A stretch of 61,479 nucleotides of DNA from a virus (taxonomy: Duplodnaviria; Caudoviricetes). This document shows, piece by piece, positions 5,916 to 60,682 of the stretch. The translations under genes and the position numbers were made by a program. Location: positions 1 through 61,479 of the IMG/VR virus record IMGVR_UViG_3300038962_000175. One strand, given 5' to 3'. Each line of letters starts with the position of its first letter. Positions within the stretch are counted from its first letter, which is position 1. The notes beneath the pieces were generated by a model. It was given only the letters and a program-made list of their open reading frames with translations, was not told the DNA's origin and searched no databases.

Positions 5916-6877
5916 ATTGAGTAGTTAAAATTTTTCTCTTTGAAAGATGCTAGCCTATTCTCTATGATCCTAAGCGTGTTAAAAATAGCATCACTTTCTT
6001 CCGAGGTTATGTCTGGGAATGGCGCTCTGTTGTAAAAGCAACAAATGTCTTTTTGATTTAACGCCTGTCTCATTGATTTATGCCATCCGATTTCCATAAA
6101 CGTATCGAATAATGGATTTTCAAAATGCTCTATTATGAAATGCTCCATTGTGTGCTCTAAGTTTACAGATCTGTTGAAATAATCTATTTCTATTTCAGGA
6201 AAAATGCTACCCACTCCAGACAGGAATGTTTGAACCCCTGTTGGTTTGAGTAGATTAAATCTTCTCATACTACCGCCAGCAACTATTACTGCAAAATCAT
6301 CCTTGTCTATATCTTTACAGACATTATAGGCAATATTAAAAGAAGAACCTTCCTCCTTCATTCCAAATATATTGGGATGGATCGCCACCTTATTTATGAG
6401 ACTGGAGGTAAAGTCGTACAAACCACCATTCCCACGGCGCATAAATCTTCCGTGAAAAAGTACGGGGAAATTGCTTTTGTCGGCTATGAAATGGAAATAA
6501 TTTATTATTGAAGAATCGTCATAATATCTTTCTGGGTAGACACCCATAAGATAAGTTTTTCCGTCATCCTCTATATTTTCATTCAGCCAATCTATTTCTT
6601 TCGCTAGTCTGGTGTTTGGAAACTCTGGAAGACCTAGTATCTTCACTCCAGAAAAAGCAGCAGAGCTAATCTCATTAAGCCTTCTTATCTCATATTCATC
6701 CAATAAATTGTACTGAGAGGTTCCCGCAGTTGTTACTATGGTATTAGCACCACCAGTTTCCAAGAAGTTTATGTAGTCCGTTGTTGAGCCTATGTCTAGC
6801 TCGCCAGTGTCTTTATATGAAGGGGGTATAGGAAAAACTGGACCATTGGTTATATCTTTTATCTTGGAGTTTATCAT
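5912..6877 (-). CDS. DapA/NanA-family class I aldolase (divergent)
   Basis: GELD, AGTSQY (cf. GTTGE), HPNIFGMKEE carrying the Schiff-base Lys. Confidence 0.75.
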   Translation of the reverse strand: MINSKIKDITNGPVFPIPPSYKDTGELDIGSTTDYINFLETGGANTIVTTAGTSQYNLLDEYEIRRLNEISSAAFSGVKILGLPEFPNTRLAKEIDWLNENIEDDGKTYLMGVYPERYYDDSSIINYFHFIADKSNFPVLFHGRFMRRGNGGLYDFTSSLINKVAIHPNIFGMKEEGSSFNIAYNVCKDIDKDDFAVIVAGGSMRRFNLLKPTGVQTFLSGVGSIFPEIEIDYFNRSVNLEHTMEHFIIEHFENPLFDTFMEIGWHKSMRQALNQKDICCFYNRAPFPDITSEESDAIFNTLRIIENRLASFKEKNFNYSI

Positions 6878-26351: not shown

Positions 26352-28007
26352 TTAAATTTGTAAAACTTTTTCTACAACCAGTCCATCCCTCCCTTTTGAA
26401 GTTTCGCCACACAGTAAAACTGTATTGCCTTCTGTTAACAAGCTTTTGTATTTTTCCCAACCCTCTGGAAAAATAACGACGGAATCTGCCTCGGAGCTTC
26501 CGTCCTCCACGCTAAGAAAGGCCATTTTTTTACCTTTCATCTTACCCTTTGCTATCACCCACTCGCGACAAGACTTAACCTCAACGCCAAGGGTTAGTTT
26601 TCCCTTCTTGCCATCTACAAGTTCTTTGCAGGTCGTATTAACAGAAGTCGTGTCACAGGAATCTACCTTACAATAAGAGAGCGGCACTCCAAGGAGTCGC
26701 TCCTCTTCCATAACGATCTCGTTTGGATAGTCCTCTAGGGAGTAGGGGGGAGAGTCTAGTTGAAGAATCAGGTCTTCTACAATAGCTTTTCTATTCTTAT
26801 TGGAAGTCCCTCCCCCCTCCTTCTTTGTTGGAGATAGGATCCTCATCGCTGAAACGAGACGTTCTTCATCCTGACAGTTCAAAGATATCCACTCCTTCTC
26901 TTTTTTTGTAAGGACGCTCCATGTTTCGAACTCATAAACACATTCTTTCCTGCTGATTTTACTGTTAGTAAATTCGGAAAGAGCGCCCACATGTATAAGC
27001 GACTCCATAACTTTAGAGCTAATTTTGTCAGAGATATTTATAAGAAACTTATACCAAGTCATCTCGCCAGCAAAAAGGTTTTGGTTCTTATATTCTTTCA
27101 TAACCTTTATAAGCTTGTCTACGTGGTTCTTGCCTATGTATTTTATATCCCCTATACCAAAGCTGACAGATTCGTCATGTATCTTAAATGATTTATTCAA
27201 GTTACCTATGCTTGGAGACTGTACGGTCACACCACTAGACCGAGCGTCAGACACTAGATCTCTTATCTCTTGCTGCGGGTCTGGCTTACCACCCGAGTAA
27301 TACAGATAGCTACAGTAGAAATCCAAAGGGAAATGTGATTTGCAATAAGCAGACCAATAGCCACAAATAGCATAAGAAACAGCATGGGACTTATTAAAAG
27401 CGTAACGATTAGATTTTTCAATCCACCCGAATATCTCCTCCGCTGTTTCTCTAGACACAACACCTTTGTCATCCGCTCCTGTTAGGAAGGAATCTTTTAC
27501 CTCAGACATAAGGTCGGCCTTTTTCTTGCCGATTGCCTTTCTTAGATTGTCTGCTTCCCGAAGACTGAATCCTGCAATGACCTGAGCAATTTTCATAGAC
27601 TGCTCTTGGTACACAAGAACGCCCTGAGTGGATTTAAGTATAGGTTCCAGAGAATCATGAAGGTATGACACCTCCTCTTTTTTATGTTTACGATCTACAT
27701 AGTGTTGGGTCATTGACTTTCCATCTACTATAGCCTTAAGACATCCGGGTCTTAGAAGAGCAGACAGGGCAGCTAAGTCCTCAATGCTTCGAGGTTTTAA
27801 TCTCTTAGCCCAAGATCTTCCAAGCTGGCTTTCTAGCTGAAAAACCCCTTTAGTTTTTCCCTCACATATTAAATCCCAAGTTCTTTCACAATCGTAATTC
27901 ACATTCAGCATGTTTAAGTCAATGATGGGTAGACCGTCCTCTTTTTTCTGGGACGGGTCTCCATCTATGTCAAACTCACATCCACACTCAAACGTATAAA
28001 TTGCCAT
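26352..28007 (-). CDS. dnaE: DNA polymerase III alpha, C-terminal part (fingers, HhH, OB)
   Basis: GVFQLES, LRPG, VYQEQ, ADNLRKAIGKKK, YAFNKSHA, KMAF..ED OB fold. Start 28007 or 28025. Confidence 0.93.
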   Translation of the reverse strand: MAIYTFECGCEFDIDGDPSQKKEDGLPIIDLNMLNVNYDCERTWDLICEGKTKGVFQLESQLGRSWAKRLKPRSIEDLAALSALLRPGCLKAIVDGKSMTQHYVDRKHKKEEVSYLHDSLEPILKSTQGVLVYQEQSMKIAQVIAGFSLREADNLRKAIGKKKADLMSEVKDSFLTGADDKGVVSRETAEEIFGWIEKSNRYAFNKSHAVSYAICGYWSAYCKSHFPLDFYCSYLYYSGGKPDPQQEIRDLVSDARSSGVTVQSPSIGNLNKSFKIHDESVSFGIGDIKYIGKNHVDKLIKVMKEYKNQNLFAGEMTWYKFLINISDKISSKVMESLIHVGALSEFTNSKISRKECVYEFETWSVLTKKEKEWISLNCQDEERLVSAMRILSPTKKEGGGTSNKNRKAIVEDLILQLDSPPYSLEDYPNEIVMEEERLLGVPLSYCKVDSCDTTSVNTTCKELVDGKKGKLTLGVEVKSCREWVIAKGKMKGKKMAFLSVEDGSSEADSVVIFPEGWEKYKSLLTEGNTVLLCGETSKGRDGLVVEKVLQI

Positions 28008-28671
28008 CGGCAAAAGCCTTTTCAAATTTAGTTCTTGATGCCAGACTTCTCTGGAACTTCATAAACCTTATCATTATGTTTGCGGTATCTTTAACATCCT
28101 GAAGTGCATCGTGAGCATTTTCATCCGACAAACCCATGTAATCCCGCATATTATCCATACTAATAGATTTTATGTCGGGATTGTTTTCCGTCCATAGAAA
28201 CATCATGTCCATAACATCAATTTTGTTTACCTTACTAAACAATTTTTGATGTCCGGTCTTTTCGTTTAGAGGCCCATATTCTCTGCACAATCTATCAACA
28301 ATTATCATGTCAAAACCATTGATATTGTATCCAGCAGGTATCGGAGCATACCACTGGGTCTTTTTAAAATTATATTTGTCAACAAACTTTGTAAATTTTT
28401 TCCACACCTGTTTTGGATGAGGAGCTTTTGCTAGACCTTCTCTTGTCTTCTTTGTTAACTCTAAAGCTTCATCCTCTAGAGGGTCTAGTCCTTGTTTGAT
28501 AGCCTCTTCGTCATCTAATATAGGACGAATCTCGCTATTGAAAAACCCTCCGGGTTGAACTGTTAGCTTTCTTCCATGTATTGCAACTGCTGCTATTTGT
28601 GTGGGTTGTGTCTTTTCTGGGTTGACAGAACCGGTTTCAAAATCAAATACAATTATATCTCTATAGTTCAT
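27988..28671 (-). CDS. DEDDh 3'-5' exonuclease (DnaQ/epsilon-like)
   Basis: FDFETG (Exo I), GYNINGFD (Exo II), HDALQD (Exo III). Confidence 0.92.
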   Translation of the reverse strand: MNYRDIIVFDFETGSVNPEKTQPTQIAAVAIHGRKLTVQPGGFFNSEIRPILDDEEAIKQGLDPLEDEALELTKKTREGLAKAPHPKQVWKKFTKFVDKYNFKKTQWYAPIPAGYNINGFDMIIVDRLCREYGPLNEKTGHQKLFSKVNKIDVMDMMFLWTENNPDIKSISMDNMRDYMGLSDENAHDALQDVKDTANIMIRFMKFQRSLASRTKFEKAFADGNLYV

Positions 28672-28883
28672 GAAATCTTGCCTTTTATCTCCAAAAATTT
28701 GTCTATGGCATCAAAAGGACTCTTGTACATCATGCTAAATTTGGCTTTTCTATTATCAGAATGAACCTGATACAAATCAGTCTTGACAGTTCTTGTGTAA
28801 TGATTGTTTATCCTGCAAAGAGATAAATCGTTACACTCTATAGAACAGCCATCTAAAAGCACTTCACTGTAATGTTTCTTCAT
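28668..28883 (-). CDS. Hypothetical protein
   Basis: 71-aa ORF overlapping both neighbours. Confidence 0.6.
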   Translation of the reverse strand: MKKHYSEVLLDGCSIECNDLSLCRINNHYTRTVKTDLYQVHSDNRKAKFSMMYKSPFDAIDKFLEIKGKIS

Positions 28884-30804
28884 CTATAACTCCAGTTAAA
28901 AGTTGATCCCTTACTCCCATAATTTTATCCAATAGATTGATACCAAGAACATCAAATTTTACATGACCCATAGCCTCAAGATCTACCATTTCCAATCCGG
29001 CGATTTTATCGGTGCCGTTGGTTTCTTTGACCATTGGACACGACTTGTTTAAGTTTTTGGAAGATATAACAACCCCGGCGGCGTGCTTACCTTGAGACTT
29101 GTATGTCCCCTCTAACCTCATTGCTTGCTCGAACAACTTTGCGTAATCACCAGTCAGAATACCGTCATCTTTTAATTCGCAATAATCACTAAGAGCCTCT
29201 GGCTGGTAGGTCAAAGTCCATAATATCGACGATGAATTTGATATGGATTCTAGCTGGTCTGAAATTTTATCTTCTTGCGGTAGAGACTTTGTTATCCTGT
29301 TCATCTCATCAAATGAACATGCGTCATGAACTCTCAGCACTTCCTTTAAAGCACTTCTTCCTTGCAGTCTACCGAATGTTACCATTTGACAGACCCTGTC
29401 ATCGCCATACTTAGATCTTATATACTGTATAACCGAATCTCTTTTTGTTGCCGGGACATCTATATCAATATCGGGTAGGGAGATATGATCTTCCGTGTTC
29501 CTACCCATATTATAAAATCTCTCAAAGAGCAAGTCATATTCTATTGGATCGACTTCGGTTATACCAATCAGATATGAGATTAGACAACCTGCGGCAGAAC
29601 CTCTTCCGGGGCCAGCCAACCAATTCTGATTCTTAACATAATCTACAATGTCTCTAACTATCAAAAAATAACCGGACAGATTTGCCCGGCTGATGACATC
29701 AAGCTCTTCTTTTATTCTATCAACGTACTGTTTAGTTTTTTCTTCGGTGTTTACTTTCCCCTCTCTTTTTAACCTATTACGCCAACCGTCTCTACAGAGA
29801 TCCCTGAGATACTCTTCTTCTGTCATATCTTTAGGGCAAGAAAACTTAGGAAGCATGGGGTGGCCTAATATATCGTAATCCTCACAGCCGTCTGATATGA
29901 GCTTGGAGTTATAAAGCTCCTCTTCCGAATGAAGAGACTCCATTTCTTCTAGCGAAGGTATGTGGTAGTTGTTTGATTTAAAAAAAGAAGAGAGAACAAT
30001 ATTTTCGTTATTTTTCAGCCTATCATTAACCTTTTTTAAAGTAGTTTTCATCGCAGAGCATAGTATTATCCTTTGATCTGCGGCGTCTTCTTTTGTTGGA
30101 TAGTGTGAGTCGGCTGTTGCCACTGGGGGAATGTTTGTTTCCCTGCTAACCTCTCTAAGGCATTCTGCTATGAGTTCTGCTGCGGGAAAATTATCCTTGT
30201 CTATAAGTTGTATCTCTACGAAAAAATTTCCAGCACCAAAAATTTTGAGATATCGTGAGGCCATCACGATTGCATCTTCTTTCCAGTTTCTCTTCAAATG
30301 CTTTGCTGATTCTTCATAGGTTTTAGCAGAGTAACCAGCTTTCACATCTTTAAATAGCACATTTGCTAGGTCGCTGCCCGGATGACCACTAAAGGCTACT
30401 AGACTTCCCTTAGTGTCTCCAACTATCTCATCCAGCAAGTTAAGGTCTAGTCTTGGTTTAAAATAAAACACATCCTCTTCATTACTTCTAGATGTAGCTT
30501 CAATTAATTTGTTCCAACCTTCAGTGTTCTTAGCTAATACTACCAGATGAGATAGTGAACGATTCTGTTTATCTTTTAGTTTAGCATCATTTGATATATA
30601 AAATTCACAACCTAGTATTGGTTTGATATTTTTTTCTCTCATCGCCCTCACGAACGAAACGGCTCCAGAGATTGTACCGTGATCAGTTATTGCACATGAG
30701 GTATATCCAAGTTCAGAGCATCTGTCGGCAACTTGAGACGGCTTTGAGAGGCCGTCTAGGAGGCTGTAGTGTGTGTGTAAATGCAAAGGTGTCCAAACTG
30801 ACAT
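28864..30804 (-). CDS. dnaE: DNA polymerase III alpha, N-terminal part (PHP, palm, thumb)
   Basis: HLHTHYSLLDG, TDHG, GPGRGSAAG, LLFERF, PDIDID, HAAGVVI, KFDVLG. Confidence 0.95.
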   Translation of the reverse strand: MSVWTPLHLHTHYSLLDGLSKPSQVADRCSELGYTSCAITDHGTISGAVSFVRAMREKNIKPILGCEFYISNDAKLKDKQNRSLSHLVVLAKNTEGWNKLIEATSRSNEEDVFYFKPRLDLNLLDEIVGDTKGSLVAFSGHPGSDLANVLFKDVKAGYSAKTYEESAKHLKRNWKEDAIVMASRYLKIFGAGNFFVEIQLIDKDNFPAAELIAECLREVSRETNIPPVATADSHYPTKEDAADQRIILCSAMKTTLKKVNDRLKNNENIVLSSFFKSNNYHIPSLEEMESLHSEEELYNSKLISDGCEDYDILGHPMLPKFSCPKDMTEEEYLRDLCRDGWRNRLKREGKVNTEEKTKQYVDRIKEELDVISRANLSGYFLIVRDIVDYVKNQNWLAGPGRGSAAGCLISYLIGITEVDPIEYDLLFERFYNMGRNTEDHISLPDIDIDVPATKRDSVIQYIRSKYGDDRVCQMVTFGRLQGRSALKEVLRVHDACSFDEMNRITKSLPQEDKISDQLESISNSSSILWTLTYQPEALSDYCELKDDGILTGDYAKLFEQAMRLEGTYKSQGKHAAGVVISSKNLNKSCPMVKETNGTDKIAGLEMVDLEAMGHVKFDVLGINLLDKIMGVRDQLLTGVIDEETLQ

Positions 30805-30813
30805 CTTGTCGTC

Positions 30814-31335
30814 CTAAAATTCTACTGGGTCAAGATCCTTGTATTTCATATTGTGACAATCAGTAGAAACCTTCCATCCGTTAGAAGGATCTATGTCACC
30901 CTGCGAATAAAAATGCGCTTGCTCAAAGTATTCCTTTGCATCCTTCTGTCCACAAATCCAAGCTTTCAAAGGCTTGGTCCCTTTAAACTGAATGCTTGTG
31001 AATATATATATATCTGGCTTTTGATGAGCACTGGTTTCTGCGACAGAAGCATCGTAAGAATCTTGAGGGGGTACAGACCTTCTTTTCGATTTCACCTCTA
31101 TCTTTTTACCATCTCTTATTAAGTCATGGTTATACTTATCCCGACCCTCATTGTTACTGATTATCTCAGCTTGAATATAACCGGCAACGATTTCCTCACC
31201 TAGATAGCCAGCAAAGTTTCCAGCCCCCTTTAGAATAGAATTATTTATCCTACCTAGATTTTTAGCCTTGACTCTAGCTCGCTCAACCATCTCCTCTGTG
31301 AACTCAACTTCAACTATGTTTGATTGCTTTGTCAT
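30814..31335 (-). CDS. PD-(D/E)XK nuclease-fold protein
   Basis: GYLGEE...HDL...KIEVKSK. Confidence 0.6.
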   Translation of the reverse strand: MTKQSNIVEVEFTEEMVERARVKAKNLGRINNSILKGAGNFAGYLGEEIVAGYIQAEIISNNEGRDKYNHDLIRDGKKIEVKSKRRSVPPQDSYDASVAETSAHQKPDIYIFTSIQFKGTKPLKAWICGQKDAKEYFEQAHFYSQGDIDPSNGWKVSTDCHNMKYKDLDPVEF

Positions 31336-32248
31336 ATAAATATCTTCCCGTGGCTACATCCTCTATCGCTAGACCGGTTGCATCAAATAATGTCTTATTA
31401 AAAGATTCGGTATTTGTTTCCCCCTGAACTACCAGCGATAGTGGAGACCAAACCTGTCCAGAGATCTGCTTTTTAGAGTATTGAATCTCGCCCGAATGAG
31501 AGCACTGAACCCACTCATCATAGCACACAAGGTCCGAATTTTCTAGGACGCAGGAATGAAGCTCCCTTTTTCCTTCGGCGTCTGCCCCAATCGCATTAAT
31601 GTGAACGACAGGTTTGAGAGCATCATTTTTTATGAAGGGTTTTCTGGACGGTGTTAAAGTGGTAACTATGTCAGAATCCCATAGACAGTCTTCTAGATCT
31701 TTACAGACTACCACTAAGGATCTACAAGAGATGGATGGTTTCTTGAGAAGTTGTTCCTTGAGATTGTTAGCCCTATCTACATCTAGGTCAAATAGCTTGA
31801 TAGTTTTTATTTCTCTTACAGATGTCACAGCTTCAATTTGTCTGGCTGTCTGATTGCCACACCCCACAAACCCCGCAGTTCTAGCGTGTTTTGGGGCCAG
31901 ATATTTTGTGGCCACCCCAGTCACCGCTGCTGTGCGAATTGCTGTCAGAGTTTCCGCATCCATGATAGCCAGAAGATCGCCAGAGTCTACGTCGTTTATA
32001 AGAACCTTTGCAAAGATTTTAATCTTGCCCGGATCTTTTATGTTTAAACTGGCCCACTTAATCCCTGCGGTTTTATCAACAACCGCTGGCATAGCCCTGA
32101 AGTCCCCGTTAGGAACGTCCATGTAGACTTTTGGTGGCATCTGTGTGTTGTCTATGTTTTTGAAGAGTGTATCAATAACATCTATACACTCGGTAACGCT
32201 TACTAGTCCAGCAACATCCTCGTTATTAAAGTATTTAACCGGGAGCAT
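31310..32248 (-). CDS. Ornithine cyclodeaminase/mu-crystallin family protein (archaeal-type alanine dehydrogenase-like)
   Basis: QMPPKVY..GDFRAMPA..GIKW, TAIRTAA, GCGNQ, HINAIGADAEGKREL, FDATGLAIED. Confidence 0.9.
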   Translation of the reverse strand: MLPVKYFNNEDVAGLVSVTECIDVIDTLFKNIDNTQMPPKVYMDVPNGDFRAMPAVVDKTAGIKWASLNIKDPGKIKIFAKVLINDVDSGDLLAIMDAETLTAIRTAAVTGVATKYLAPKHARTAGFVGCGNQTARQIEAVTSVREIKTIKLFDLDVDRANNLKEQLLKKPSISCRSLVVVCKDLEDCLWDSDIVTTLTPSRKPFIKNDALKPVVHINAIGADAEGKRELHSCVLENSDLVCYDEWVQCSHSGEIQYSKKQISGQVWSPLSLVVQGETNTESFNKTLFDATGLAIEDVATGRYLYDKAIKHS

Positions 32249-47666: not shown

Positions 47667-48042
47667 CTTTAAAAGCCCTTAAAAAATTATTACACATAAG
47701 ATTCTTTAGCTTTCTCTTGTTGGCATGTCTAGATAGTACACACAAATCATAACTCTCATCATATTTTTCCATGTCTGCGGACTCGGAGGCGAAAACGTAA
47801 TCGCCCCTGAATCCCAGACATCTCAAGGCGTCTCTCATGGGAGAGCCGTCTTGATCAACGTAGCAAACCTCGATGACACGATCAAGACCGGAATATGTCA
47901 TCCCGGTCTGGTCGTGATGATTTTTTAAAAGTTTGATAGAGTCAATAACCTCTGGTTGTTTTTCCAAAGGTATCATGTGATTAACTATCCGGGTAACTGG
48001 ACGATTCCAGTTACCTAATCTTTCTTCTTCTGTAGTGGGCAT
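47659..48042 (-). CDS. Hypothetical protein
   Basis: 127-aa ORF in operon. Confidence 0.6.
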   Translation of the reverse strand: MPTTEEERLGNWNRPVTRIVNHMIPLEKQPEVIDSIKLLKNHHDQTGMTYSGLDRVIEVCYVDQDGSPMRDALRCLGFRGDYVFASESADMEKYDESYDLCVLSRHANKRKLKNLMCNNFLRAFKDG

Positions 48043-48487
48043 CTATTCTTCCTAAGCCTGCTGCATAATTTGGAATTGACGAACTAGAAGTGACGCCATT
48101 GTTGCTTCTATCATATACTTTTATTGACCCATCTTCTAAAATATAAATACAGTCAGCGTCATGGATTGTGATCTGTTTTATATTTTCACGTTTTTGTATC
48201 AACTGGCGATACCCTTGCAGATGGCCATTAAAACTTAGATTGCCATAATGTACCGGCTGTGCCTGAATAGTCCACCCAATGGGAGTCCAAATCCAAACCA
48301 TTTGAACCGGTTTGTAAAATTGATTTATGTATAAATCAGAATGCTGACTATATCCATACGTATCAATTGTTTGTTCTAAATTTCTAACGAAAATCTGAAC
48401 ATCAGCAGCCTCAGATTTTTCTCCAGAAATAAACGGAACTGTGGCAATCGCAGCAACACCCGTTTTAAGAAAGTCTCTTCTATCCAT
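48011..48487 (-). CDS. Twin-arginine (Tat) signal protein
   Basis: Start MDRRDFLKTGVAAIATVPF...SEAA matches the RRxFLK consensus with h-region and AxA-like cleavage site. Confidence 0.75.
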   Translation of the reverse strand: MDRRDFLKTGVAAIATVPFISGEKSEAADVQIFVRNLEQTIDTYGYSQHSDLYINQFYKPVQMVWIWTPIGWTIQAQPVHYGNLSFNGHLQGYRQLIQKRENIKQITIHDADCIYILEDGSIKVYDRSNNGVTSSSSIPNYAAGLGRIDAHYRRRKIR

Positions 48488-48494
48488 TTTTATT

Positions 48495-48668
48495 CTAGCT
48501 CTTTCTAATACTGTCGCCAACAATCCAAGCACCGCCAACCAGCACTAGATTGTTAACCTGATCTTCTGTTAATCCAAGCCCGAGTCCGTCAAATAATACG
48601 AACACGACGCCTGAAACGGCAAGCCAAAATCTTCTTGATTGAGTTAGAGCTACTAGTTTGTCGATCAT
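48495..48668 (-). CDS. Holin-like two-TM peptide, 57 aa (absent from ORF track)
   Basis: MIDKLVALTQSRRFWLAVSGVVFVLFDGLGLGLTEDQVNNLVLVGGAWIVGDSIRKS; strong AAGGAG RBS; SR(R/K)FW motif seen in small holins. Confidence 0.65.
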   Translation of the reverse strand: MIDKLVALTQSRRFWLAVSGVVFVLFDGLGLGLTEDQVNNLVLVGGAWIVGDSIRKS

Positions 48669-48716
48669 GTTGTTCTCCTTTATTAATAGAATTAAGTATC
48701 GTTTATCGCTTTTCCG

Positions 48717-49040
48717 TTAGAGAGAGTCTTTGTTAGCGTAATTCTGTCTAGCAGTAGATCTCTCGCAATCAGGACACATTGGAATTCTTTGTCCATGCAT
48801 TTTCAAATGATGCTGTGTTCTCAAGATGTTCTTTAATATGACAGTATCTCTGTAAACATTTTGTCTGTTCATATTTTCAAGAGCAGCCGCAATTGCTCCA
48901 GCGACTTGAGGTGAACTAACGGGAGTCATCTTGACAGCCGATAGTTTTTTGTCTTTTGCGTCAAGTAAATATAAAGCAACACCTAAGTTGACGGAGACGC
49001 ATACTAAAAAGAGTATAACAAGATTAATTGCTGGCTTCAT
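48717..49040 (-). CDS. Membrane-anchored hypothetical protein
   Basis: N-terminal TM segment, helical middle, C-terminal CPDC. Confidence 0.65.
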   Translation of the reverse strand: MKPAINLVILFLVCVSVNLGVALYLLDAKDKKLSAVKMTPVSSPQVAGAIAAALENMNRQNVYRDTVILKNILRTQHHLKMHGQRIPMCPDCERSTARQNYANKDSL

Positions 49041-49974
49041 TGTCTTCTCTTGTTAGCGGTAGGACTGGAAACTTGATAGAATCTCTAGTCTTAGGATATG
49101 ATTTCAAAGACTTCGGCCCCGGAGGGTTAGACTCTTCTGTGGTCATGGCGGTGATTTTTTCTAGACTGGGGACTTTGACATCTGTATCAATGGCCCATAG
49201 AATACCTTCTTTTTTAGCATAAGATCTCATCCGCCTCACTGGCACGATAAGATTAAAGGTTTCTCCAGCGCCACGAACAAGCATGCCAACATATTGACCG
49301 GCCTTTTCCTTGGTCCTCTCACTAAGGAAAACGCCTCCACCACTTGAACCCGGAAATGCCGTTACCGTAGTTTGGTCGAAAACTACACCATCTCCAGTTC
49401 CCAAGTCTAGAACTCTGCCAACTTGAGAACAAATTCCTCGCGTCATCGAGTTACTCCCAACTTGGCCTAGTAAAGAGCCTACATGATATAACTCAGTGCC
49501 AATGGCGACTGGCTTGCCAGAGTCTTTATAGAAAGTGGTGGTCTTGTCAATAAAACCTTTCTTTCTAACCATCAAAAGAGCCAAGTCTTCTCCGTTTTCA
49601 GCATCGGAATATTTAATAACCTTGGCTTCCATTTTGAATTCACCAACACGTCGTCCGTCTTCAACTAATTCTTTTACAATCTGCGCGTCCTTAAACTCAA
49701 CAACCGTCTGAGGTTTTCCGTCTTTAATAACAACTCTTACAGATCTAAGACCATCAACAACATGCGCCGCCGTCCAAACAAAATTAACCTTCTGTTTGAC
49801 ATTTGGGGAGACTTCGACTTCTCGCGTAACGATTACGCCAGACCCCTCTCCGAAACCGGACTTAACCGTGACGGACACGTCCTGTAGATGCTGGTACAGC
49901 TTATTATCTTGCGCGCTCGCCATGGGCGTCATAGACAATATAGCTACTGTTAGAATGCAAAAAAGCCTTTTCAT
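49024..49974 (-). CDS. Secreted trypsin-like serine protease
   Basis: Signal peptide (ASA|Q), TAAHVV, DLALL, PGSSGGG catalytic triad. Confidence 0.9.
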   Translation of the reverse strand: MKRLFCILTVAILSMTPMASAQDNKLYQHLQDVSVTVKSGFGEGSGVIVTREVEVSPNVKQKVNFVWTAAHVVDGLRSVRVVIKDGKPQTVVEFKDAQIVKELVEDGRRVGEFKMEAKVIKYSDAENGEDLALLMVRKKGFIDKTTTFYKDSGKPVAIGTELYHVGSLLGQVGSNSMTRGICSQVGRVLDLGTGDGVVFDQTTVTAFPGSSGGGVFLSERTKEKAGQYVGMLVRGAGETFNLIVPVRRMRSYAKKEGILWAIDTDVKVPSLEKITAMTTEESNPPGPKSLKSYPKTRDSIKFPVLPLTREDNEASN

Positions 49975-50009
49975 TGTCTTCCTTCCTCGTAATCTTCAGA
50001 TTTAAAAAA

Positions 50010-50798
50010 CTAGTTAACTACTTCTCCACCCTGCATACCTCTTTCCAACTCACGCTGTGGCGTATTGGCTTCGTTCTCGGCAACACCGGGGGCGACAGGT
50101 ACGTTTGGCGTAGCAATAGGACGAAGCTCATCTTCTGTAAACTCACTACCGAGGGCAGGATGCTTGATCCACTCTATGGTTGGAATGTGGCTTACATCAT
50201 AAGTATCAAAGTGAGACTTTGTCAAGAAGAATGGAGAATCTCCATCAAAAATCTTTTCGCAGTCTACCAGAGGAACTTGGAATAGTTCAGCCGACATTAA
50301 GCGATAACCTTCTCTAAATAGTTTCTTCATCTCGACAGCAGTTGATTCTGACCAATCGTTTGCCCAAGTGTTTTCTGATAGCTGGGCAATATTACTGAGA
50401 GCCTGAAGTCCAAGCTCAATCCATCTTCTGCAATAGTCGTTCTTGACATCAAAATATCTAATGGGATAAATCTTGAAAGCTCTACGCTCATGAGTAATAT
50501 GCTGAGCTTCTAGTCTTTCAACATTATCTCTTTTAGTGTTGGTGTCAATTAGTCCGCATAGACGAACAAACATATTGTGATGCTGTTTGACAGCGCCTAG
50601 CGTCGGTGGACCGGGAACAAAGCAATCAGTGCGAACTGAAAAAGCCTGAAGATGCTCCCCAACTTTCTCAAAAACTCTAGCCATGGCTAGGTTATGAGTC
50701 TCTTTGTTGTCGCCAACATTAGGAATGGCCCACTTAACCCCGTTATACATGTAGGGAAGTATAGCGTCGTGAACTGGAATTACTAAATGATCTGACAT
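50010..50798 (-). CDS. Hypothetical protein (cytoplasmic, largely helical)
   Basis: 262-aa ORF with GGAG RBS; no signal peptide and no motif recognised. Confidence 0.7.
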   Translation of the reverse strand: MSDHLVIPVHDAILPYMYNGVKWAIPNVGDNKETHNLAMARVFEKVGEHLQAFSVRTDCFVPGPPTLGAVKQHHNMFVRLCGLIDTNTKRDNVERLEAQHITHERRAFKIYPIRYFDVKNDYCRRWIELGLQALSNIAQLSENTWANDWSESTAVEMKKLFREGYRLMSAELFQVPLVDCEKIFDGDSPFFLTKSHFDTYDVSHIPTIEWIKHPALGSEFTEDELRPIATPNVPVAPGVAENEANTPQRELERGMQGGEVVN

Positions 50799-50810
50799 TA
50801 TTAATGTCTC

Positions 50811-52916
50811 CTATTCTATGTTATGTTTTTCTTTAAGTCTTTGTCTAAGCAATATATCCATTTGCGTCATGGTCATGGTCTGATCATTCTGATACTCATT
50901 AATCAATTCTCCAAATATGGTCATGATCTGTTCCGCCGTAGCGGTTTTTCTAGTGCTAAATGGCACGTTGGGTAGCTGCGGAGGTAATCCGTGAGCCGCA
51001 ACTGGTTGAGGATAGTGGTACTGTTCGACCATCTGTGGCATTGGTAAACCGTATCCAGCAAATCCGGGGTTTAGCCTAAATCCGTTTTTTGCCAAGTCAT
51101 CTATCTCGTGAGTTGTCCTTGGATCTGGCAGTTCTTCTGGAGGCATGATAAAATCGTTTTCATGCTTGTGTTTGTGGGTGTGAATATGCTCATGCTCATG
51201 CACATGCTTTTTTACACCACCCTCATCGTCGTGATGACAACCTCCATCAGGCATTACGGGTATGCTTTCGGGCACATCCTCATCATCAATATCATACCCA
51301 TTATCTACAGATTCTTCCTCCTCTTTTTTCCTTTTTCTTTTTCTTCTTCTGTTGAGCAAAAAGGGAACGCCATATTTTAGAGCAAGCATTCCTATGCTGG
51401 CGCCACCAAGAGTAAAGCTAACATTCTCAACTGCGTTTCCATTACCTCCGGTAGCCTCATCAAGGTAGTGACCTCCACCGTCTTTGAGGTCATTAATAAG
51501 TTTGTCCTTATCGTTCACGAAGCCCAAAAGCTGTTCTATTCTAGAGCTTAGTGACTGTTTTTGTCCTTCAACTTTACCAAGAAGATCTCTTAATCCACGA
51601 ATCTCATCTTGTGAATTTAATAAGTTGCTATTTGTCCCAGAAAGCTCTGCTTTAAGACTCTCTGATAGAGCTTCTAAGTTTGAAAGCTTTTCCTGTAATT
51701 CGGCAATCTTATCCATGTATTGCTGTCGCTCTTCATCAAAATTGTCTGGGGAGTCGGGGTCTACGGGACCACCCGGATCTGGTCTACCGGGCCAAGGATT
51801 AAATCCACCACCACCATCACCCCCTCCTCCATTGGGTGGTTCTGGTCTTGGAGGTTTTGGTGGGGGAGGGCATGGGTTAAGCGGACACCAAGGAAACAGA
51901 CCGTTGCCTTCGTATAACTCTCCAACTCTAATCCCACGATAATACTTTGCTGTGTCTGCATAGCTACCATCTGGAAACTTAAGAATAGGGCAGAACATAA
52001 AGTGACCTTCTTCGGTCTTTCTAAGGCCACCCTCATCTGGAATAACCACATGGTCTTCAATCTTACGATCACAATGAGGGCATCTGCTCAATAATCTTTT
52101 TGGTTTTTTTTGATTATTCTCTGCTTTATCTTCATTGTGAGCGGCGTGTGTTTCTTCCTTTGAAGTAGCTTTAGGTTCGGTTTTTTCTGAAATTACTTCA
52201 TAAGAAGCCTCTATAGCATGACCCTCGCCATTCCCGTCAAGTATTTCGTAAATTTGTTTCAATGATAATCCAGCACCATAATCAGTAGGTCCGTCATCAC
52301 TGTAAGCACCGTCTCCAACTCGCCAAGCAAGAAGAATACCAATACGAGTCTGTATTTCTCCATCCTTGTCTTTAATTAGTATTAAGACTCCACTTCCAGA
52401 CTGACCGCCGATAGGTGCGGCATTAAAGCTGACGGTAGCCCCGTGATTTTGGATCACTCTACCTTTCCAAGCACAGGCCCATTGTGCAGAGGGGCAACCG
52501 CCAGCCATAACTTGATCATTTGACTTAATTACAGTCCCACGAGGGGCTAGAGGAATAACTCTAGGGGGGTATCGACCAAAATACTTTTTTTTAACCGAAA
52601 GGACGGCAAGATCTAATGCAGTACCATCTTTATATGCCGCATACTCTGTCTTGAAGGGTATCATGGCAGATTTATAGCCATCTTGAAAGAATTCCACATG
52701 CCCCCTAGAGGCACGTCCAACGACATGACCATTTGTGAGAATGTAGAAGTTGTTTTCATCTTCAGCAAAGACTATTCCGCTACCTCGGGCATCTCGGGCG
52801 TTTACTCTACACACCGCCTCTAGAGATTCATCCATTGTTAGGGCTTGTGCGATTGCTGTTTCGCTATTTAGCAAAAACCCCAAGAAGAGGGCTGTTAAAA
52901 AAAGGAATTTTTTCAT
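50811..52916 (-). CDS. Membrane-anchored multidomain trypsin-like serine protease
   Basis: Signal peptide, TNGHVV, DLAVL, GGQSGSG; then CPHC, Pro/Gly linker, coiled coil, TM followed by RRRKRKRKK, and an HxHxH tract. Confidence 0.85.
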   Translation of the reverse strand: MKKFLFLTALFLGFLLNSETAIAQALTMDESLEAVCRVNARDARGSGIVFAEDENNFYILTNGHVVGRASRGHVEFFQDGYKSAMIPFKTEYAAYKDGTALDLAVLSVKKKYFGRYPPRVIPLAPRGTVIKSNDQVMAGGCPSAQWACAWKGRVIQNHGATVSFNAAPIGGQSGSGVLILIKDKDGEIQTRIGILLAWRVGDGAYSDDGPTDYGAGLSLKQIYEILDGNGEGHAIEASYEVISEKTEPKATSKEETHAAHNEDKAENNQKKPKRLLSRCPHCDRKIEDHVVIPDEGGLRKTEEGHFMFCPILKFPDGSYADTAKYYRGIRVGELYEGNGLFPWCPLNPCPPPPKPPRPEPPNGGGGDGGGGFNPWPGRPDPGGPVDPDSPDNFDEERQQYMDKIAELQEKLSNLEALSESLKAELSGTNSNLLNSQDEIRGLRDLLGKVEGQKQSLSSRIEQLLGFVNDKDKLINDLKDGGGHYLDEATGGNGNAVENVSFTLGGASIGMLALKYGVPFLLNRRRKRKRKKEEEESVDNGYDIDDEDVPESIPVMPDGGCHHDDEGGVKKHVHEHEHIHTHKHKHENDFIMPPEELPDPRTTHEIDDLAKNGFRLNPGFAGYGLPMPQMVEQYHYPQPVAAHGLPPQLPNVPFSTRKTATAEQIMTIFGELINEYQNDQTMTMTQMDILLRQRLKEKHNIE

Positions 52917-52926
52917 TATAGAATCC

Positions 52927-53010
52927 TCAAGGGACTTTCGCCCTGATTATTGCGCCTAAAATTATAAGTGAAAGAGCAAATCCTATAACAAGGAGAAATA
53001 CATCTCCCAT
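52927..53010 (-). CDS. 27-aa single-TM peptide (absent from ORF track)
   Basis: MGDVFLLVIGFALSLIILGAIIRAKVP; TAATG overlap with the upstream stop. Confidence 0.5.
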   Translation of the reverse strand: MGDVFLLVIGFALSLIILGAIIRAKVP

Positions 53011-53600
53011 TACCAATCCTTTTCGATAGTAAATTTATATTGAAAGATAGATGATCTTGCAAGATCTGCTGGTGTGACAGCGGAGTCGGCTAGGTATGGA
53101 ACTGGGTCAACATACGCGACTCTATATGCATACGCTACAGCAGTACTACACACAAACACATTTGTGGGATCATCGTCTTTTATATTTTGTTCTGCTAATC
53201 TACAAAAGGGTAAATAATGCTTACCCAGCTTCCAAAAATTTTTCCATCCGTAAGGAAGACCTGTGATGTCTTTCATAGCGTCCGCTATTTTATTTGCAAC
53301 ATCATCAGTAAATATATAATCATTGTCTTCAAACTCAATATGTCTAGCCGCTCTAAATACGTCTACGTTGTTGGGATGCGTTTCGATAACTCTTTTAAGA
53401 GATACGGCTCTACCTCCCTTGAATTCTCTAAACTCTACACACTGAAGATCATCGTCGTCCCAGTGAGCCATCCCTACGTGGCTATGAACTCCACTGCTAT
53501 ACCTTTTTATCAACCAAGAAACTAGTCCCTCACCACGAAACAAAAGAACATCTGACTCTTTTATCTGATTTTCTGCTTCGTGGTAAGGAACAAAGTTCAT
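53010..53600 (-). CDS. Permuted NlpC/P60 papain-like amidase (YiiX/YaeF family)
   Basis: DVLLFRG, SHVGM (His first), PY, FVCS (Cys second), VTPADL. Confidence 0.85.
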   Translation of the reverse strand: MNFVPYHEAENQIKESDVLLFRGEGLVSWLIKRYSSGVHSHVGMAHWDDDDLQCVEFREFKGGRAVSLKRVIETHPNNVDVFRAARHIEFEDNDYIFTDDVANKIADAMKDITGLPYGWKNFWKLGKHYLPFCRLAEQNIKDDDPTNVFVCSTAVAYAYRVAYVDPVPYLADSAVTPADLARSSIFQYKFTIEKDW

Positions 53601-53602
53601 AA

Positions 53603-53923
53603 CTATTTCTCTTCTAATTTTTTCTCTATTCTATCCAAAATATCAGCGATCCTTCTTTGGTCGTTGACTATTTGGGTCATAATTTGCTGCATGTCCTTCT
53701 GAGTTTCCGCCCAGCTTCTAGGAACATATACCAAGGGGGTTCCATCAGAGTCCTGACGAGATACTACCTTGTAGGTATGTTGTATCCAGTCCCTTTCTTC
53801 GTCCACCAATAAAGATTTTTGGGGAACGGATTTTAAGATTAAAATCTCAATAACCTTGCCTAATCCCATCACGATAGCTACTATTGCTGCTAGTGTCGGA
53901 ATAGATAAAATGTCTGATTCCAT
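53603..53923 (-). CDS. N-terminal TM plus coiled-coil protein (BhlA/XhlA holin-like architecture)
   Basis: GGAG RBS before MESDIL; hydrophobic LAAIVAIVMGLG; C-terminal ILDRIEKKLEEK. Confidence 0.55.
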   Translation of the reverse strand: MESDILSIPTLAAIVAIVMGLGKVIEILILKSVPQKSLLVDEERDWIQHTYKVVSRQDSDGTPLVYVPRSWAETQKDMQQIMTQIVNDQRRIADILDRIEKKLEEK

Positions 53924-53950: not shown

Positions 53951-53986
53951 AAAAGAGGGGGGATGACTATATGGCCCTCCCCCCTC
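53951..53986 (-). terminator. Rho-independent terminator
   Basis: Minus strand GAGGGGGGA...TCCCCCCTC followed by TTTT, just downstream of the 54008-54658 gene. Confidence 0.8.
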
Positions 53987-54007: not shown

Positions 54008-54658
54008 TTAGCCAGTCTTGGCGTTATAATCATCCTGTGTTGGCGTCTTGCCAGTTTCGAGGTAGACAAGTTCGCCCGGAACTGCCAGAGTTGGCAGGGC
54101 GTCGTCGTCTACTAGGTCACTTGCATTTCCATCGCCAATATCCCAGAAGTGGGTTGTCTTTAACGTAGCAGGAACTCCTGAAATCCAGTTATGTCTTTGG
54201 TTAGCAACGCCAACCCAAGAGAACTGATTAGCAGCCCATTTGGTCAAAGTCTTCGCTCCAAACTGAGTCTGAGCGGAATGAATAGACCTACGGTTAAAGT
54301 CACCCGCACCACTCTGTAGCACGGTGTTGCTGGCTCCGCTAAGGGTAACAGCAACTCTCATCATCACAAACTGTGGATCAGATGAAGTTCTGTCTTTTCC
54401 TGCGGGGGTAAAAGCAAAAGTGCCACCGCTAACCGCCTTTTGTGTGGTGTAAACACCAGCACTAAGCAGTTTTGGTAGGTTCATGCCTCTGTTTGCAACA
54501 ACAGGATCTGTTACGTCCATCACGGCTAGTGCTTTTGTGATGGGGTTTCCTTCTGTGGTGGTGGTAGCATCTGTGATGCCGACCATAGCTCCACCCTGCT
54601 TTTGCGCTGTAAAAGCGCCTCCAGTAGTGTTGAATAAAAATGCTGTGGGAACTGCCAT
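54008..54658 (-). CDS. Ala/Thr/Gly-rich probable virion structural protein
   Basis: Composition typical of virion proteins; flanked by its own upstream gap and downstream terminator. Confidence 0.55.
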   Translation of the reverse strand: MAVPTAFLFNTTGGAFTAQKQGGAMVGITDATTTTEGNPITKALAVMDVTDPVVANRGMNLPKLLSAGVYTTQKAVSGGTFAFTPAGKDRTSSDPQFVMMRVAVTLSGASNTVLQSGAGDFNRRSIHSAQTQFGAKTLTKWAANQFSWVGVANQRHNWISGVPATLKTTHFWDIGDGNASDLVDDDALPTLAVPGELVYLETGKTPTQDDYNAKTG

Positions 54659-59750: not shown

Positions 59751-59791
59751 TAAAAATACCGCCCCCGCATCACTAAGGAGTGCGGGGACGG
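59751..59791 (-). terminator. Rho-independent terminator
   Basis: Minus strand CCGTCCCCGCA...TGCGGGGGCGG (one G-U pair) followed by TATTTTTA, downstream of the rIIB-like gene. Confidence 0.85.
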
Positions 59792-59815: not shown

Positions 59816-60652
59816 TCAGTAAGTGTCTGAATCATCTTGCTCTTCGTATTCTTCACCGTTTGAGGAACCCATAAGGTTGGACATGAATTCAGTAAACTGC
59901 TCTTCGGTCCAAGGCTCGCCATCTTCTGACTTATGGACAAGACTCTTAAGCGGACCTTCATAGTCGGCAATAACCTGATATTCACAGGTTCGGACCTTCT
60001 GACATTCACAGTCAGTTGGGACCGACACAACATCCTTGGGGTTGACCTTAACGATGACCACACGGTCACCAGCATGTTCGGCCCGGTAACCTTCGACGTA
60101 TTCCAATGCTCCACAGTGAAGCCCATCAGAACAACCAACACTACAGTCATCGTTAACCTTACGGCGCTGCATACTAACAGTCTCGCCAACACTGTTATCA
60201 ATGGTCCGAGACCACTTATCCTTATAATCACTAGTCACGGCCTTGTAAGCAAGGAAGCAACCATCTTCTGTGATAGGAAGGTTCTTATGCTCAAGGAATG
60301 TATACAGTTCTTGAACAGCACGATTACTATGATTCTCCAAGACGTTAGCCAAGAACTTAACCATAGGCTCGAAGGGGAAACCATTACGCATCATTCCCAT
60401 AATGCGCTCAGTAAGACTGTTGTGGATTTCCTCACCATCATAGCGAAGAACACCATTAGTAACAGTAACCTTACCTTCTGCATAATCTTCGATAGCAGAG
60501 GGAATGTCAATCAGTTCAACAATGTTTTCTGCATCGTCATTAACGATACATTCTTTGATAGCCATGTAGTTAGGATGGTCGTAACCAACCGTAAAACTCT
60601 GGTTATCAATAACAATCGTAATCGTTCCGTTTCCGCTGACAATATAATTCAT
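59816..60652 (-). CDS. rIIB: T4 rIIB-like protein
   Basis: ELYTFL, ITEDG.FLAYK.V, DNSVG..V.M.R..V, CS.GLH, VKVNPKDVVSVP.D..K.R.C.Y. Confidence 0.88.
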   Translation of the reverse strand: MNYIVSGNGTITIVIDNQSFTVGYDHPNYMAIKECIVNDDAENIVELIDIPSAIEDYAEGKVTVTNGVLRYDGEEIHNSLTERIMGMMRNGFPFEPMVKFLANVLENHSNRAVQELYTFLEHKNLPITEDGCFLAYKAVTSDYKDKWSRTIDNSVGETVSMQRRKVNDDCSVGCSDGLHCGALEYVEGYRAEHAGDRVVIVKVNPKDVVSVPTDCECQKVRTCEYQVIADYEGPLKSLVHKSEDGEPWTEEQFTEFMSNLMGSSNGEEYEEQDDSDTY

Positions 60653-60682
60653 CTCAATTCCTCGCACTGGTTAAGGTAGTTC

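Follow-up and report, generated by a model that had tools for sequence, protein, structure and literature searches.

We analyzed a gene module at positions 48011-53923 of a 61,479-nucleotide (nt) stretch of phage DNA, the virus record IMGVR_UViG_3300038962_000175, and this whole 61.5-kb stretch is called the window here. The gene set most likely acts on the host cell envelope. With a probability of roughly 40%, we favor the reading that the region is a conserved envelope-attack operon and that the set serves egress, rather than an earlier takeover of the envelope by remodeling or exclusion. The unit is a five-gene core coding for a transmembrane (TM)/coiled-coil protein, a permuted NlpC/P60-type enzyme, a 701-residue protease, a 262-residue protein, and a 316-residue protease. 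Four further genes, coding for products of 27, 107, and 57 residues and for a protein with a twin-arginine translocation (Tat) signal, are variable accessories. The domains are known and their combination is new. It joins one free and one tethered, periplasm-spanning S1 protease to a viral YiiX-type enzyme that has a TM partner and to a new family of 262-residue proteins. An earlier note on this DNA had described nine consecutive genes right after a terminator, and all nine open reading frames (ORFs) were found to be present and contiguous on the minus strand, as follows.

53603..53923, minus strand: 106-residue single-pass membrane protein with a hydrophobic segment and a conserved C-terminal coiled-coil-like domain
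53010..53600, minus strand: 196-residue putative YaeF/YiiX-type permuted NlpC/P60 cysteine enzyme, cytoplasmic (no signal)
52927..53010, minus strand: ORF for a 27-residue hydrophobic peptide (hydropathy 3.03), its ATG overlapping the stop of the 196-residue gene
50811..52916, minus strand: 701-residue bitopic membrane serine protease (Trypsin_2, E 7e-10, residues 45-178)
50010..50798, minus strand: 262-residue cytoplasmic protein from a family not yet described, modeled as a helical bundle with a small beta element near its N terminus (AlphaFold)
49024..49974, minus strand: 316-residue Sec-exported soluble trypsin-like serine protease (Trypsin_2, E 5.5e-11)
48717..49040, minus strand: 107-residue N-terminally anchored membrane protein with a C-terminal His/Cys motif (hydropathy 2.6)
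48495..48668, minus strand: 57-residue small membrane protein with one clear and one weak hydrophobic segment
48011..48487, minus strand: 158-residue Tat-signal protein, starting MDRRDFLK

The core was defined by comparing related viral loci. Confirmed viral relatives were retrieved for the secreted protease (89) and for the permuted enzyme (21), and 49 distinct protease loci were distinguished, 29 of which were informative, with at least 4.6 kb of upstream sequence. The five core genes were colinear within 5 kb in 19 of these 29 loci. The conservation across phages that the earlier note had proposed to check was thus found for five of its nine genes, and the other four varied in presence or place. 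Gene order, spacing, and overlapping stops and starts were fixed in all 19 core loci, and in each of them a small TM/coiled-coil gene preceded the permuted enzyme. Median identity to the window was 79% for the 106-residue protein, 68% for the 196-residue enzyme, 62% for the 701-residue protease, 82% for the 262-residue protein, and 76% for the 316-residue protease. The three upstream flanking genes had medians of 31-43%, the three downstream genes 31-60%, and the ribonucleotide reductase (RNR) gene 84%. The core is therefore about as conserved as RNR, unlike its flanks. Such strong constraint suits an essential step, and this is one of the reasons why egress is favored. A blastn search of the module against phages gave no match, and neither did tblastn of the 196-, 701-, 262-, and 316-residue proteins against 50,697 GenBank phage records (the 106-residue protein was not searched).

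Both proteases are members of the Trypsin_2 family (clan PA) with intact His/Asp/Ser triads. Their Pfam Trypsin_2 scores were 40.3 bits (701 residues) and 43.8 bits (316 residues), against a cut-off of 27.6. The motifs TNGHV, DLAVL, and GGQSGSG were conserved in 31 sequences of the 701-residue family, with H64, D102, and S173 invariant, and TAAHV, DLALL, and GSSGGG were conserved in 54 sequences of the 316-residue family, with H71, D130, and S211 invariant. Both proteins begin with a typical Sec signal. That of the 316-residue protease was read as MKRLF...MASA/QD, and signal peptides were also read by eye in 17 of 17 distant relatives of this protease. Exactly two Trypsin_2 genes scored above the cut-off in each of three related records (119, 85, and 77 kb).

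The 701-residue protein consists of a Sec signal, a trypsin-like domain (about residues 28-240), a Cys-rich region (279-345), a Pro/Gly-rich spacer (346-392; 47 residues, 60% Pro+Gly), a coiled coil (393-480; 88 residues), a probable TM segment (503-521), a poly-basic stretch, a His-rich stretch, and a conserved C-terminal tail. Coiled-coil families of Pfam and NCBIfam matched residues 390-480. The second TM segment is moderately hydrophobic (1.41) and is followed by RRRKRKRKK. The C-terminal tail is probably cytoplasmic, and the protein may be a type I membrane protein with its protease head held far out in the periplasm. By analogy with i-spanins, the spacer and coiled coil would be long enough to cross the periplasm, and this spanin-like reach is a further argument for egress. 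A coiled coil and a membrane anchor are shared with spanins, but the anchor is C-terminal and a protease is fused to it. The fusion of a protease to a spacer, coiled coil, anchor, and cytoplasmic tail is an architecture found only in this lineage in the tblastn search of the 50,697 phage records.

The 196-residue protein had been called a permuted NlpC/P60 amidase. Profile searches support a putative assignment to the permuted NlpC/P60 enzymes of YaeF/YiiX type, of which it would be a divergent member. Built from 23 relatives, the profile matched PDB entry 3KW0 at E 3.2e-6; built from 47 sequences, it matched at E 2.7e-10, aligning both the His and the Cys motifs; YiiX (2IF6) was the sole other PDB match of the larger profile. 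H41, Y117, C151, and S152 were invariant in the 47 sequences, and H41 and C151 also in the 23-sequence set. His41 precedes Cys151, as in a circular permutation. Y117 belongs to the motif G.PYGW, which both hhalign and a weak HMMER stretch placed opposite the PY of YiiX. Ten of the 47 relatives weakly matched PF05708 (Peptidase_C92; best E 4.6e-4), and the window protein itself had no Pfam match. The NCBIfam YiiX model gave E 0.025 and 14 bits against a cut-off of 216, and hhalign to the single E. coli YiiX sequence gave a probability of 1.1%, which is not significant. A PF05708 search of the three related records found nothing even at E <= 1, although relatives of the permuted enzyme are present in them, so family searches of genomes are insensitive to divergent members.

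The class to which this enzyme is assigned is linked to lipids. Both 3KW0 and 2IF6 are named as YaeF/YiiX-like permuted NlpC/P60 enzymes in PMC7387801. As described in PMC3142127, the solved YaeF/YiiX members have a narrow, hydrophobic S1 pocket that was judged unsuitable for cell-wall peptide, YiiX carries a bound fatty acid, a membrane-associated role is likely, and the proposed reaction is cleavage of a fatty-acid-to-peptide amide bond, as in lipoproteins. A Cys/His/Tyr catalytic set is described for the permuted class in the same paper (PMC3142127). A further source groups the YiiX and LRAT clades with lipid metabolism (PMC12994826), and YaeF/YiiX-type enzymes are linked to lipids in two papers (PMC12994826, PMC7387801). 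The permuted NlpC/P60 part of the former label was upheld by the profiles, and the idea of a peptidoglycan amidase, or of the missing endolysin, was not: "amidase" is right as a superfamily label and should not be read as peptidoglycan amidase. A lipid-type pocket argues against a simple endolysin role. Lipoprotein or lipid anchors would be fitting targets for it, and attacking them is compatible with egress and earlier takeover alike.

Like YiiX of E. coli (2IF6) and BcPPNE of Bacillus cereus (3KW0), the enzyme has about 200 residues with the His before the Cys, and its sH.G, G.PY, and CS motifs align to 3KW0 and YiiX, with the Tyr invariant. Unlike them, it falls below the Pfam and NCBIfam cut-offs, has its own insert of 20-40 residues, is phage-encoded, lacks both a signal and a lipobox, and invariably has a small TM protein as its neighbor. 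In public metagenomes, the family of the enzyme amounts to 647 protein clusters (90% identity), and the contigs that carry them reach about 145 kb.

The partner, the 106-residue membrane protein, has a start at ATGGAATC that is common to its relatives, and 53923 is the true start. A 128-residue reading of this gene (to 53989) was rejected; it would run into the terminator. The C-terminal coiled-coil-like domain is fully conserved, the stop of the gene abuts the start of the 196-residue gene, and the protein had no family in Pfam, PHROG, NCBIfam, or PADLOC. The same order of a TM protein and then the enzyme was found in the seven loci examined of a second group of relatives, in which the TM protein is unrelated in sequence. 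In this group (for example, locus L019), a 110-115-residue one-TM coiled-coil protein precedes the permuted enzyme with overlapping stop and start, and an 82-85-residue Cys-rich protein lies 3' of the enzyme. In holin-endolysin pairs, too, an enzyme that is conserved adjoins a small membrane protein that can be replaced. By this analogy, the replaceable TM protein next to a conserved hydrolase without a signal would favor egress. A separate observation concerns the place after the enzyme. A 69-85-residue basic protein with a CxxC...CxC pattern (zinc-ribbon-like) comes immediately after the permuted enzyme in second-group and hybrid loci (L020, L061, L067, L074, L075, L077, and L093), and the window has its 27- and 701-residue genes there.

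The 262-residue protein is the most conserved product of the module, present in 19 of 19 core loci at the 82% median given above. Its family has 31 close relatives and, by profile search, 101 cluster representatives, and relatives occur on contigs of 160-175 kb; taken with relatives of the 196-residue enzyme, the contigs range over 145-178 kb. None of 61 family members had a Pfam match, and the protein gave no PDB sequence match beyond chance and no Atlas lead. The AlphaFold model has a predicted local distance difference test (pLDDT) score of 87, compared with 49 for an earlier model from a shallow alignment. No Foldseek match at E <= 0.001 was obtained in PDB or BFVD, and the best VIA Z was 5.5, a value usual for generic helical bundles. 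No residue that looks catalytic is invariant across the wider family.

The accessories are less regular. An ORF comparable to that of the 27-residue peptide was found in 3 of 12 distinct relatives, and elsewhere the gap is 2-51 nt; it is an accessory and possibly not a real gene. The 107-residue gene occurred in 7 of the 15 core loci with enough downstream sequence, with a median identity of 46%. In these 15 loci, the 57-residue gene was present in 14, adjacent in 10 and elsewhere upstream of the module, and its SRRFW and WIVGDSIRK motifs are conserved. The protein had been read as a two-TM holin-like peptide. Of its two hydrophobic segments, one is clear and one weak; no family match was found in Pfam, PHROG, NCBIfam, or PADLOC, and it is holin-like in shape only. 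The Tat signal of the 158-residue protein is real. In its RRxFLK motif, R3, R4, F6, and K8 were invariant in 12 of 12 relatives, the h-region has a hydropathy of 1.85, and the Pfam TAT_signal match (E 2.3e-4, 21.4 bits) lies just under the cut-off of 22.7. The Tat gene was found in 7 of the 15 loci, adjacent in 5, and 5 kb away in the 119-kb relative; the protein gave no PDB or Atlas lead.

Taken together, the module is rich in membrane and export signals. By Kyte-Doolittle analysis, hydrophobic segments occurred in 6 of the 9 module ORFs and in 3 of the 70 other ORFs (Fisher p 2e-5), and four small TM proteins are present by hydropathy. When hydropathy, motifs, and by-eye reading were combined, TM, Sec, or Tat signals were found in seven of the nine proteins, the number that the earlier note had counted. 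Every enzymatic part points at the envelope, and the exported proteases, the Tat motif, and this enrichment are among the grounds for favoring egress.

The module follows a terminator and an upstream gene, and a gene further upstream places it in the genome.

53951..53986, minus strand: intrinsic terminator, a GC-rich hairpin with a T-run (sequence and fold; custom scan -21.8 kcal/mol)
54008-54658, minus strand: gene for a 216-residue Thr/Gly/Ala-rich protein, directly upstream of the module
59816-60667, minus strand: rIIB-like gene (phrog_609, E 1.2e-75)

The terminator lies directly 3' of the stop (54008) of the 216-residue gene and is built of a G-rich arm, a loop, a C-rich arm, and TTTT. 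A hairpin with a T-run follows the 216-like gene in 18 of 18 related loci with differing stem sequences, so the structure and not the sequence of the terminator is conserved. A custom minus-strand scan for a hairpin with a T-run gave eight candidates at -12 kcal/mol or better, the three strongest at 59756 (-24.6), 53954 (-21.8), and 6204 (-20.0). The first two are gene ends, that near 59756 lying 3' of the rIIB-like gene and that at 53954 belonging to the 216-residue gene; a consensus terminator scan did not list the latter, whereas the custom scan did. The hairpin at 6204 (minus strand, -20 kcal/mol, then TTTTT) lies inside ORF 5912-6877 of the sugar-gene block and could be an internal attenuator or a chance structure. 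The first module gene begins about 28 nt past the terminator, and about 20-30 nt past it in relatives. This gap has no room for a separate promoter, so the module is probably reached by read-through. Gene junctions within the module are tight, and the custom scan found no strong terminator 3' of it.

The 216-residue protein is highly variable among relatives (29-94% identity) despite a conserved C-terminal PGELVYL...DY.AKTG motif, and had no match in PDB, Pfam, PHROG, NCBIfam, or PADLOC. Since its gene is always followed by a strong terminator, a very highly expressed product is suggested. In second-group relatives, a ClpP-like 234-residue gene (1138-1842, plus strand, in L019) lies between homologues of the 213- and 216-residue genes of the window, and the window has no ClpP-like gene at that place. 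The T4-type late promoter motif TATAAATA was not enriched in the window (6 found vs. 4.7 expected). A second motif, TATWTATAGG with one mismatch, was first noticed upstream of two genes and occurred 22 times against 10.8 expected, yet it was not positioned at gene starts and was rejected as a promoter motif.

From the observed domains, catalytic residues, export signals, synteny, and conservation, egress might be pictured as follows. The module would be expressed by read-through of the terminator that ends the strongly expressed upstream gene. The 106-residue bitopic membrane protein would be translationally coupled to the permuted enzyme, which has no signal of its own, and the two proteases would be placed in the periplasm beforehand, one tethered to the inner membrane and one free. 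There they could sever the tethers of the outer membrane and the links in the wall that consist of protein or peptide, while the permuted enzyme may work at the membrane on acyl chains of lipoproteins or lipids and the small membrane proteins may gate or time the process. Together, these parts would do some or all of the work of the endolysin and spanin of textbook phages. What this scheme says of substrates, timing, small-protein topology, and any physical contact between the parts is inferred.

The search for a classical lysis set bears on this picture. Among the Pfam matches listed for 77 of the 79 window ORFs (ORF 1-585 and the 27-residue peptide excluded), there was no peptidoglycan hydrolase. 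This agrees with the earlier note, which had recognized no lysozyme in the window, and it says little, since the window is part of a larger phage. For part of these ORFs, the scan covered the best 25 of 37 families, and a weak hydrolase match may lie in the rest; the Pfam survey of the 119-kb relative covered the best 25 of 46. The suggestion to look for a canonical endolysin elsewhere was followed in the 119-, 85-, and 77-kb relatives, all of them partial rather than complete genomes, and seven families (PF00959, PF01510, PF01464, PF01520, PF13539, PF00877, and PF01551) gave no match there. Trypsin_2, the positive control, found its two genes per record, whereas searches with PF05838 and PF00182 were uninformative, as their controls were silent. 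That no other wall-degrading enzyme was found is a further reason for favoring egress.

Several points weigh against egress as the function. The fifth of the genome that was not seen could hold a standard lysis cassette, or a divergent enzyme may have escaped the searches. The small module proteins had no match to a holin family in Pfam, PHROG, or NCBIfam. No ORF with a lipobox was seen as an o-spanin candidate when the ORF list was read by eye, with no dedicated predictor. Given the lipid-type pocket of the YaeF/YiiX class, no part of the module is proven to be muralytic. Having Sec signals of their own, the proteases would be periplasmic once made, so a lytic role would need some restraint. 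The module lies between the rIIB-like gene and nucleotide and replication genes on the same strand, and early or middle expression fits this at least as well as late expression. In locus L019, about 7 kb separate the permuted enzyme from the secreted protease, which is flanked by a RecA-like and a DnaB-like gene. Finally, the 10 non-core loci among the 29 informative ones divide evenly: in five the permuted enzyme stands at another place in the locus, and in five none of the other four genes is seen.

The last points lead to the strongest competitor, an early or middle takeover of the envelope, which we consider possible but somewhat unlikely. In this case, the proteases and the lipid enzyme would remodel the surface of the infected cell alongside the glycan programme. 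They could destroy receptors or periplasmic proteins, which would exclude superinfecting phages and prevent loss of progeny on debris, or they could recycle periplasmic protein. Between the rIIB-like gene and the module are a deoxyribosyltransferase-like gene, a sulfotransferase gene, and a glycosyltransferase gene. Beyond the module, on the same strand, follow a putative nuclease-like ORF and genes for dCMP deaminase, class II RNR, dUTPase, PhoH, RecA, and DnaB, and also for primase, ThyX, dNMP kinase, an exonuclease, a split DNA polymerase III (Pol III) alpha, and ornithine cyclodeaminase. These surroundings, the tight junctions, and the lack of a strong terminator after the module support takeover, as does the secreted protease among replication genes in the second group and in a prophage-like stretch of a 2.58-Mb Pirellulales contig (methylase, SNF2-type helicase, protease, family A polymerase). 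Proteases with their own Sec signals do not need a holin, and dozens of sugar-, sulfo-, and sialyl-transferase genes in the same genome suggest surface remodeling.

However, the five-gene core was kept in all 19 core loci and is about as conserved as RNR, while known phages mostly have exclusion genes that are small, evolve fast, and can be dispensed with. The T7 amidase gene lies among replication genes, and the lysis genes of T4 are scattered, so gene position is a weak clock in large phages. Among the entries listed by full-text literature searches on protease-based exclusion and on trypsin-like proteases in lysis, none was comparable, which is not proof of absence. PADLOC gave only generic similarity to Lamassu parts, namely between the protease domain and one LmuA model (E 3e-10 and 8e-5) and between the coiled coil and LmuB models; the other eight proteins scanned had no match.

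It is also conceivable, though unlikely, that the genes are not one system but independent envelope genes kept together by operon economy in one sub-lineage: the TM and permuted-enzyme pair, the pair of 701- and 262-residue genes, a lone protease, and small morons. This would agree with the 10 informative loci in which the core is not colinear and with the Tat, 57-, and 107-residue genes that move or are missing. In addition, the secreted protease occurred alone on 21 genome-collection contigs, none of which had any of the other four core genes, and the 701- and 262-residue genes were not detected in second-group loci (tblastn, E 1e-4). Against independence stand the fixed order, spacing, and overlaps in 19 of 19 loci and a level of conservation that the flanks lack. 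Moreover, in the distant locus L079, the permuted enzyme is directly followed by a 227-residue signal-bearing trypsin-like protease. The pairing of such an enzyme with an exported protease has therefore arisen more than once among these loci, which also speaks for egress.

Envelope quality control, with HtrA/DegP-like auxiliary proteases relieving periplasmic stress from overloaded export or glycan pathways, is very improbable. The large glycan programme would suit it, and NCBIfam gave weak DegP/HtrA similarity at E 1.2e-6 (316 residues) and 4.2e-4 (701 residues). However, the degP_htrA_DO scores of the two proteases were 19.4 and 27.7 bits against a cut-off of 416, and no PDZ domain was listed in Pfam for either; with scores of 19-28 bits against cut-offs of 416 and above, membership in the HtrA/DegP family was rejected. 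Quality control would also leave the permuted enzyme, the 262-residue protein, and the periplasm-spanning tether unexplained. Phages commonly encode head-maturation serine proteases, but the remaining alternative raised in the earlier note, that these are prohead or tail proteases of virion maturation, is the least probable of all, as it had itself argued from export: the window proteins and 17 of 17 distant relatives have signal peptides (by eye), no portal, capsid, or terminase gene is nearby, and the PHROG matches were to a family of unknown function and a generic protease family, not to prohead proteases.

Sec- or signal-anchor-release-exported endolysins with pinholins are a known variant of holin-endolysin-spanin cassettes. 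Similar to canonical cassettes, small membrane proteins of the module adjoin an NlpC/P60-superfamily hydrolase without a signal, the genes are packed and overlapping, enzymes would be exported ahead, and a coiled-coil protein anchored in the inner membrane could span the periplasm. Unlike those cassettes, the module contains no member of a known holin, endolysin, or spanin family that was found and no lipoprotein partner that was seen; its exported enzymes are trypsin-like, its cysteine enzyme belongs to a lipid-directed class, and its surroundings are of early or replication type. A lipid-directed enzyme in the last step of lysis, encoded beside other lysis genes, would have a precedent in mycobacteriophage LysB, which is lipolytic and detaches the outer layer from the wall. 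However, LysB is a serine esterase and the enzyme of the module is papain-like with a cysteine, so the folds are unrelated; the likeness implies no mycolic-acid host, and the function on the module side is one we infer. Lysobacter alpha-lytic protease is a bacteriolytic S1 protease. It and HtrA/DegP share with the module proteases the chymotrypsin/trypsin fold, the His/Asp/Ser triad, and secretion, although the similarity is remote and the module proteases have no PDZ domain.

T4 Imm, Sp, and rII are superinfection-exclusion or early envelope proteins, and T5 Llp is reportedly a superinfection-exclusion protein as well. Known exclusion proteins are small and block or mask by binding. The module products are likewise sent to the membrane or periplasm, with an rIIB-like gene near, but they include catalytic proteases and a cysteine hydrolase in a conserved five-gene core.

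A bolder version of egress is that the phage leaves its host with no classical endolysin or spanin at all. The periplasm would be pre-loaded with a free protease and a tethered, periplasm-spanning one, coupled to a membrane-recruited YiiX-type de-acylase and the 262-residue protein, and lysis would come from cutting protein and lipid anchors, not glycan or stem peptide, with the tethered protease as a catalytic spanin. We regard this as doubtful. As for the host with a protein-rich envelope that had been imagined, relatives of the protease lie on contigs of Planctomycetota and SAR202 metagenome-assembled genomes (MAGs), which gives weak hints of such a host.

A common ocean phage group thus appears to handle the host envelope with parts that no studied phage uses, judging from the search of the four larger core proteins against the phage records. 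Should the module serve egress, the few known lysis strategies would gain one that works through proteases and lipids, and a viral YiiX-type enzyme would have its first assigned function. Should it act early, surface remodeling or exclusion would be known in a catalytic form. Either way, it offers three objects for tests: a tethered periplasm-spanning protease, the 262-residue family, and the pair of TM protein and permuted enzyme.

The minus strand holds every long ORF in the window. The window comprises the rIIB, nucleotide, replication, and glycan regions of a phage of roughly 150 kb and is not a whole phage; the lineage is one of large (~150 kb), uncultured, widespread, mainly marine phages. 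Searches for tRNA and Rfam families in the window gave no match. The rIIB-like gene is 90% identical to its copy in the 119-kb relative and matches 2667 phage records, all under 60% identity; the polymerase matches among phage records were also all under 60%. The 119-kb relative is 79% complete (CheckV) and colinear with the window over this region. Head, portal, terminase, and most tail genes were not seen among the matches listed for this 79% complete record, and searches with its end genes returned the same contig only, so it was not extendable. It adds a 3885-residue ORF on the opposite strand and many metabolic genes, and a 714-residue ORF upstream of its rIIB-like gene is a candidate rIIA.

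Several minor observations were made alongside. On the Pirellulales MAG contig L115, positions 6001-6840 hold a 48%-identical copy of the secreted protease; only a 186-residue ORF from 6340 was listed there, and the gene may be interrupted or use another start. The glycan programme is very large for a phage (600-24911 and 56664-58676, minus strand), with about 25 kb of the window taken up by sugar-nucleotide, methyl-, sulfo-, sialyl-, and glycosyl-transferase genes. Among its enzymes are many glycosyltransferases of families GT1, GT2, and GT4 and a sialyltransferase of family GT29, together with sulfotransferases, epimerases, dehydratases, a DegT aminotransferase, a KDO-8-P/DAHP-synthase-type enzyme, cytidylyltransferases, and several methyltransferases, and the 119-kb relative has NeuB and UDP-glucose dehydrogenase as additional glycan genes. 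The Pol III alpha (DnaE-type) is split into two minus-strand ORFs (28864-30804 and 26352-28025), one with the PHP domain and polymerase core and the other with finger, HhH, and OB domains, and a gene for a 227-residue RNase T-type exonuclease sits between them. A gene of the ornithine cyclodeaminase/mu-crystallin family (31310-32248, minus strand, E 7e-69) lies among the replication genes, and the 119-kb relative also carries aldehyde dehydrogenase, class I aldolase, proline dehydrogenase, and aminotransferase genes.

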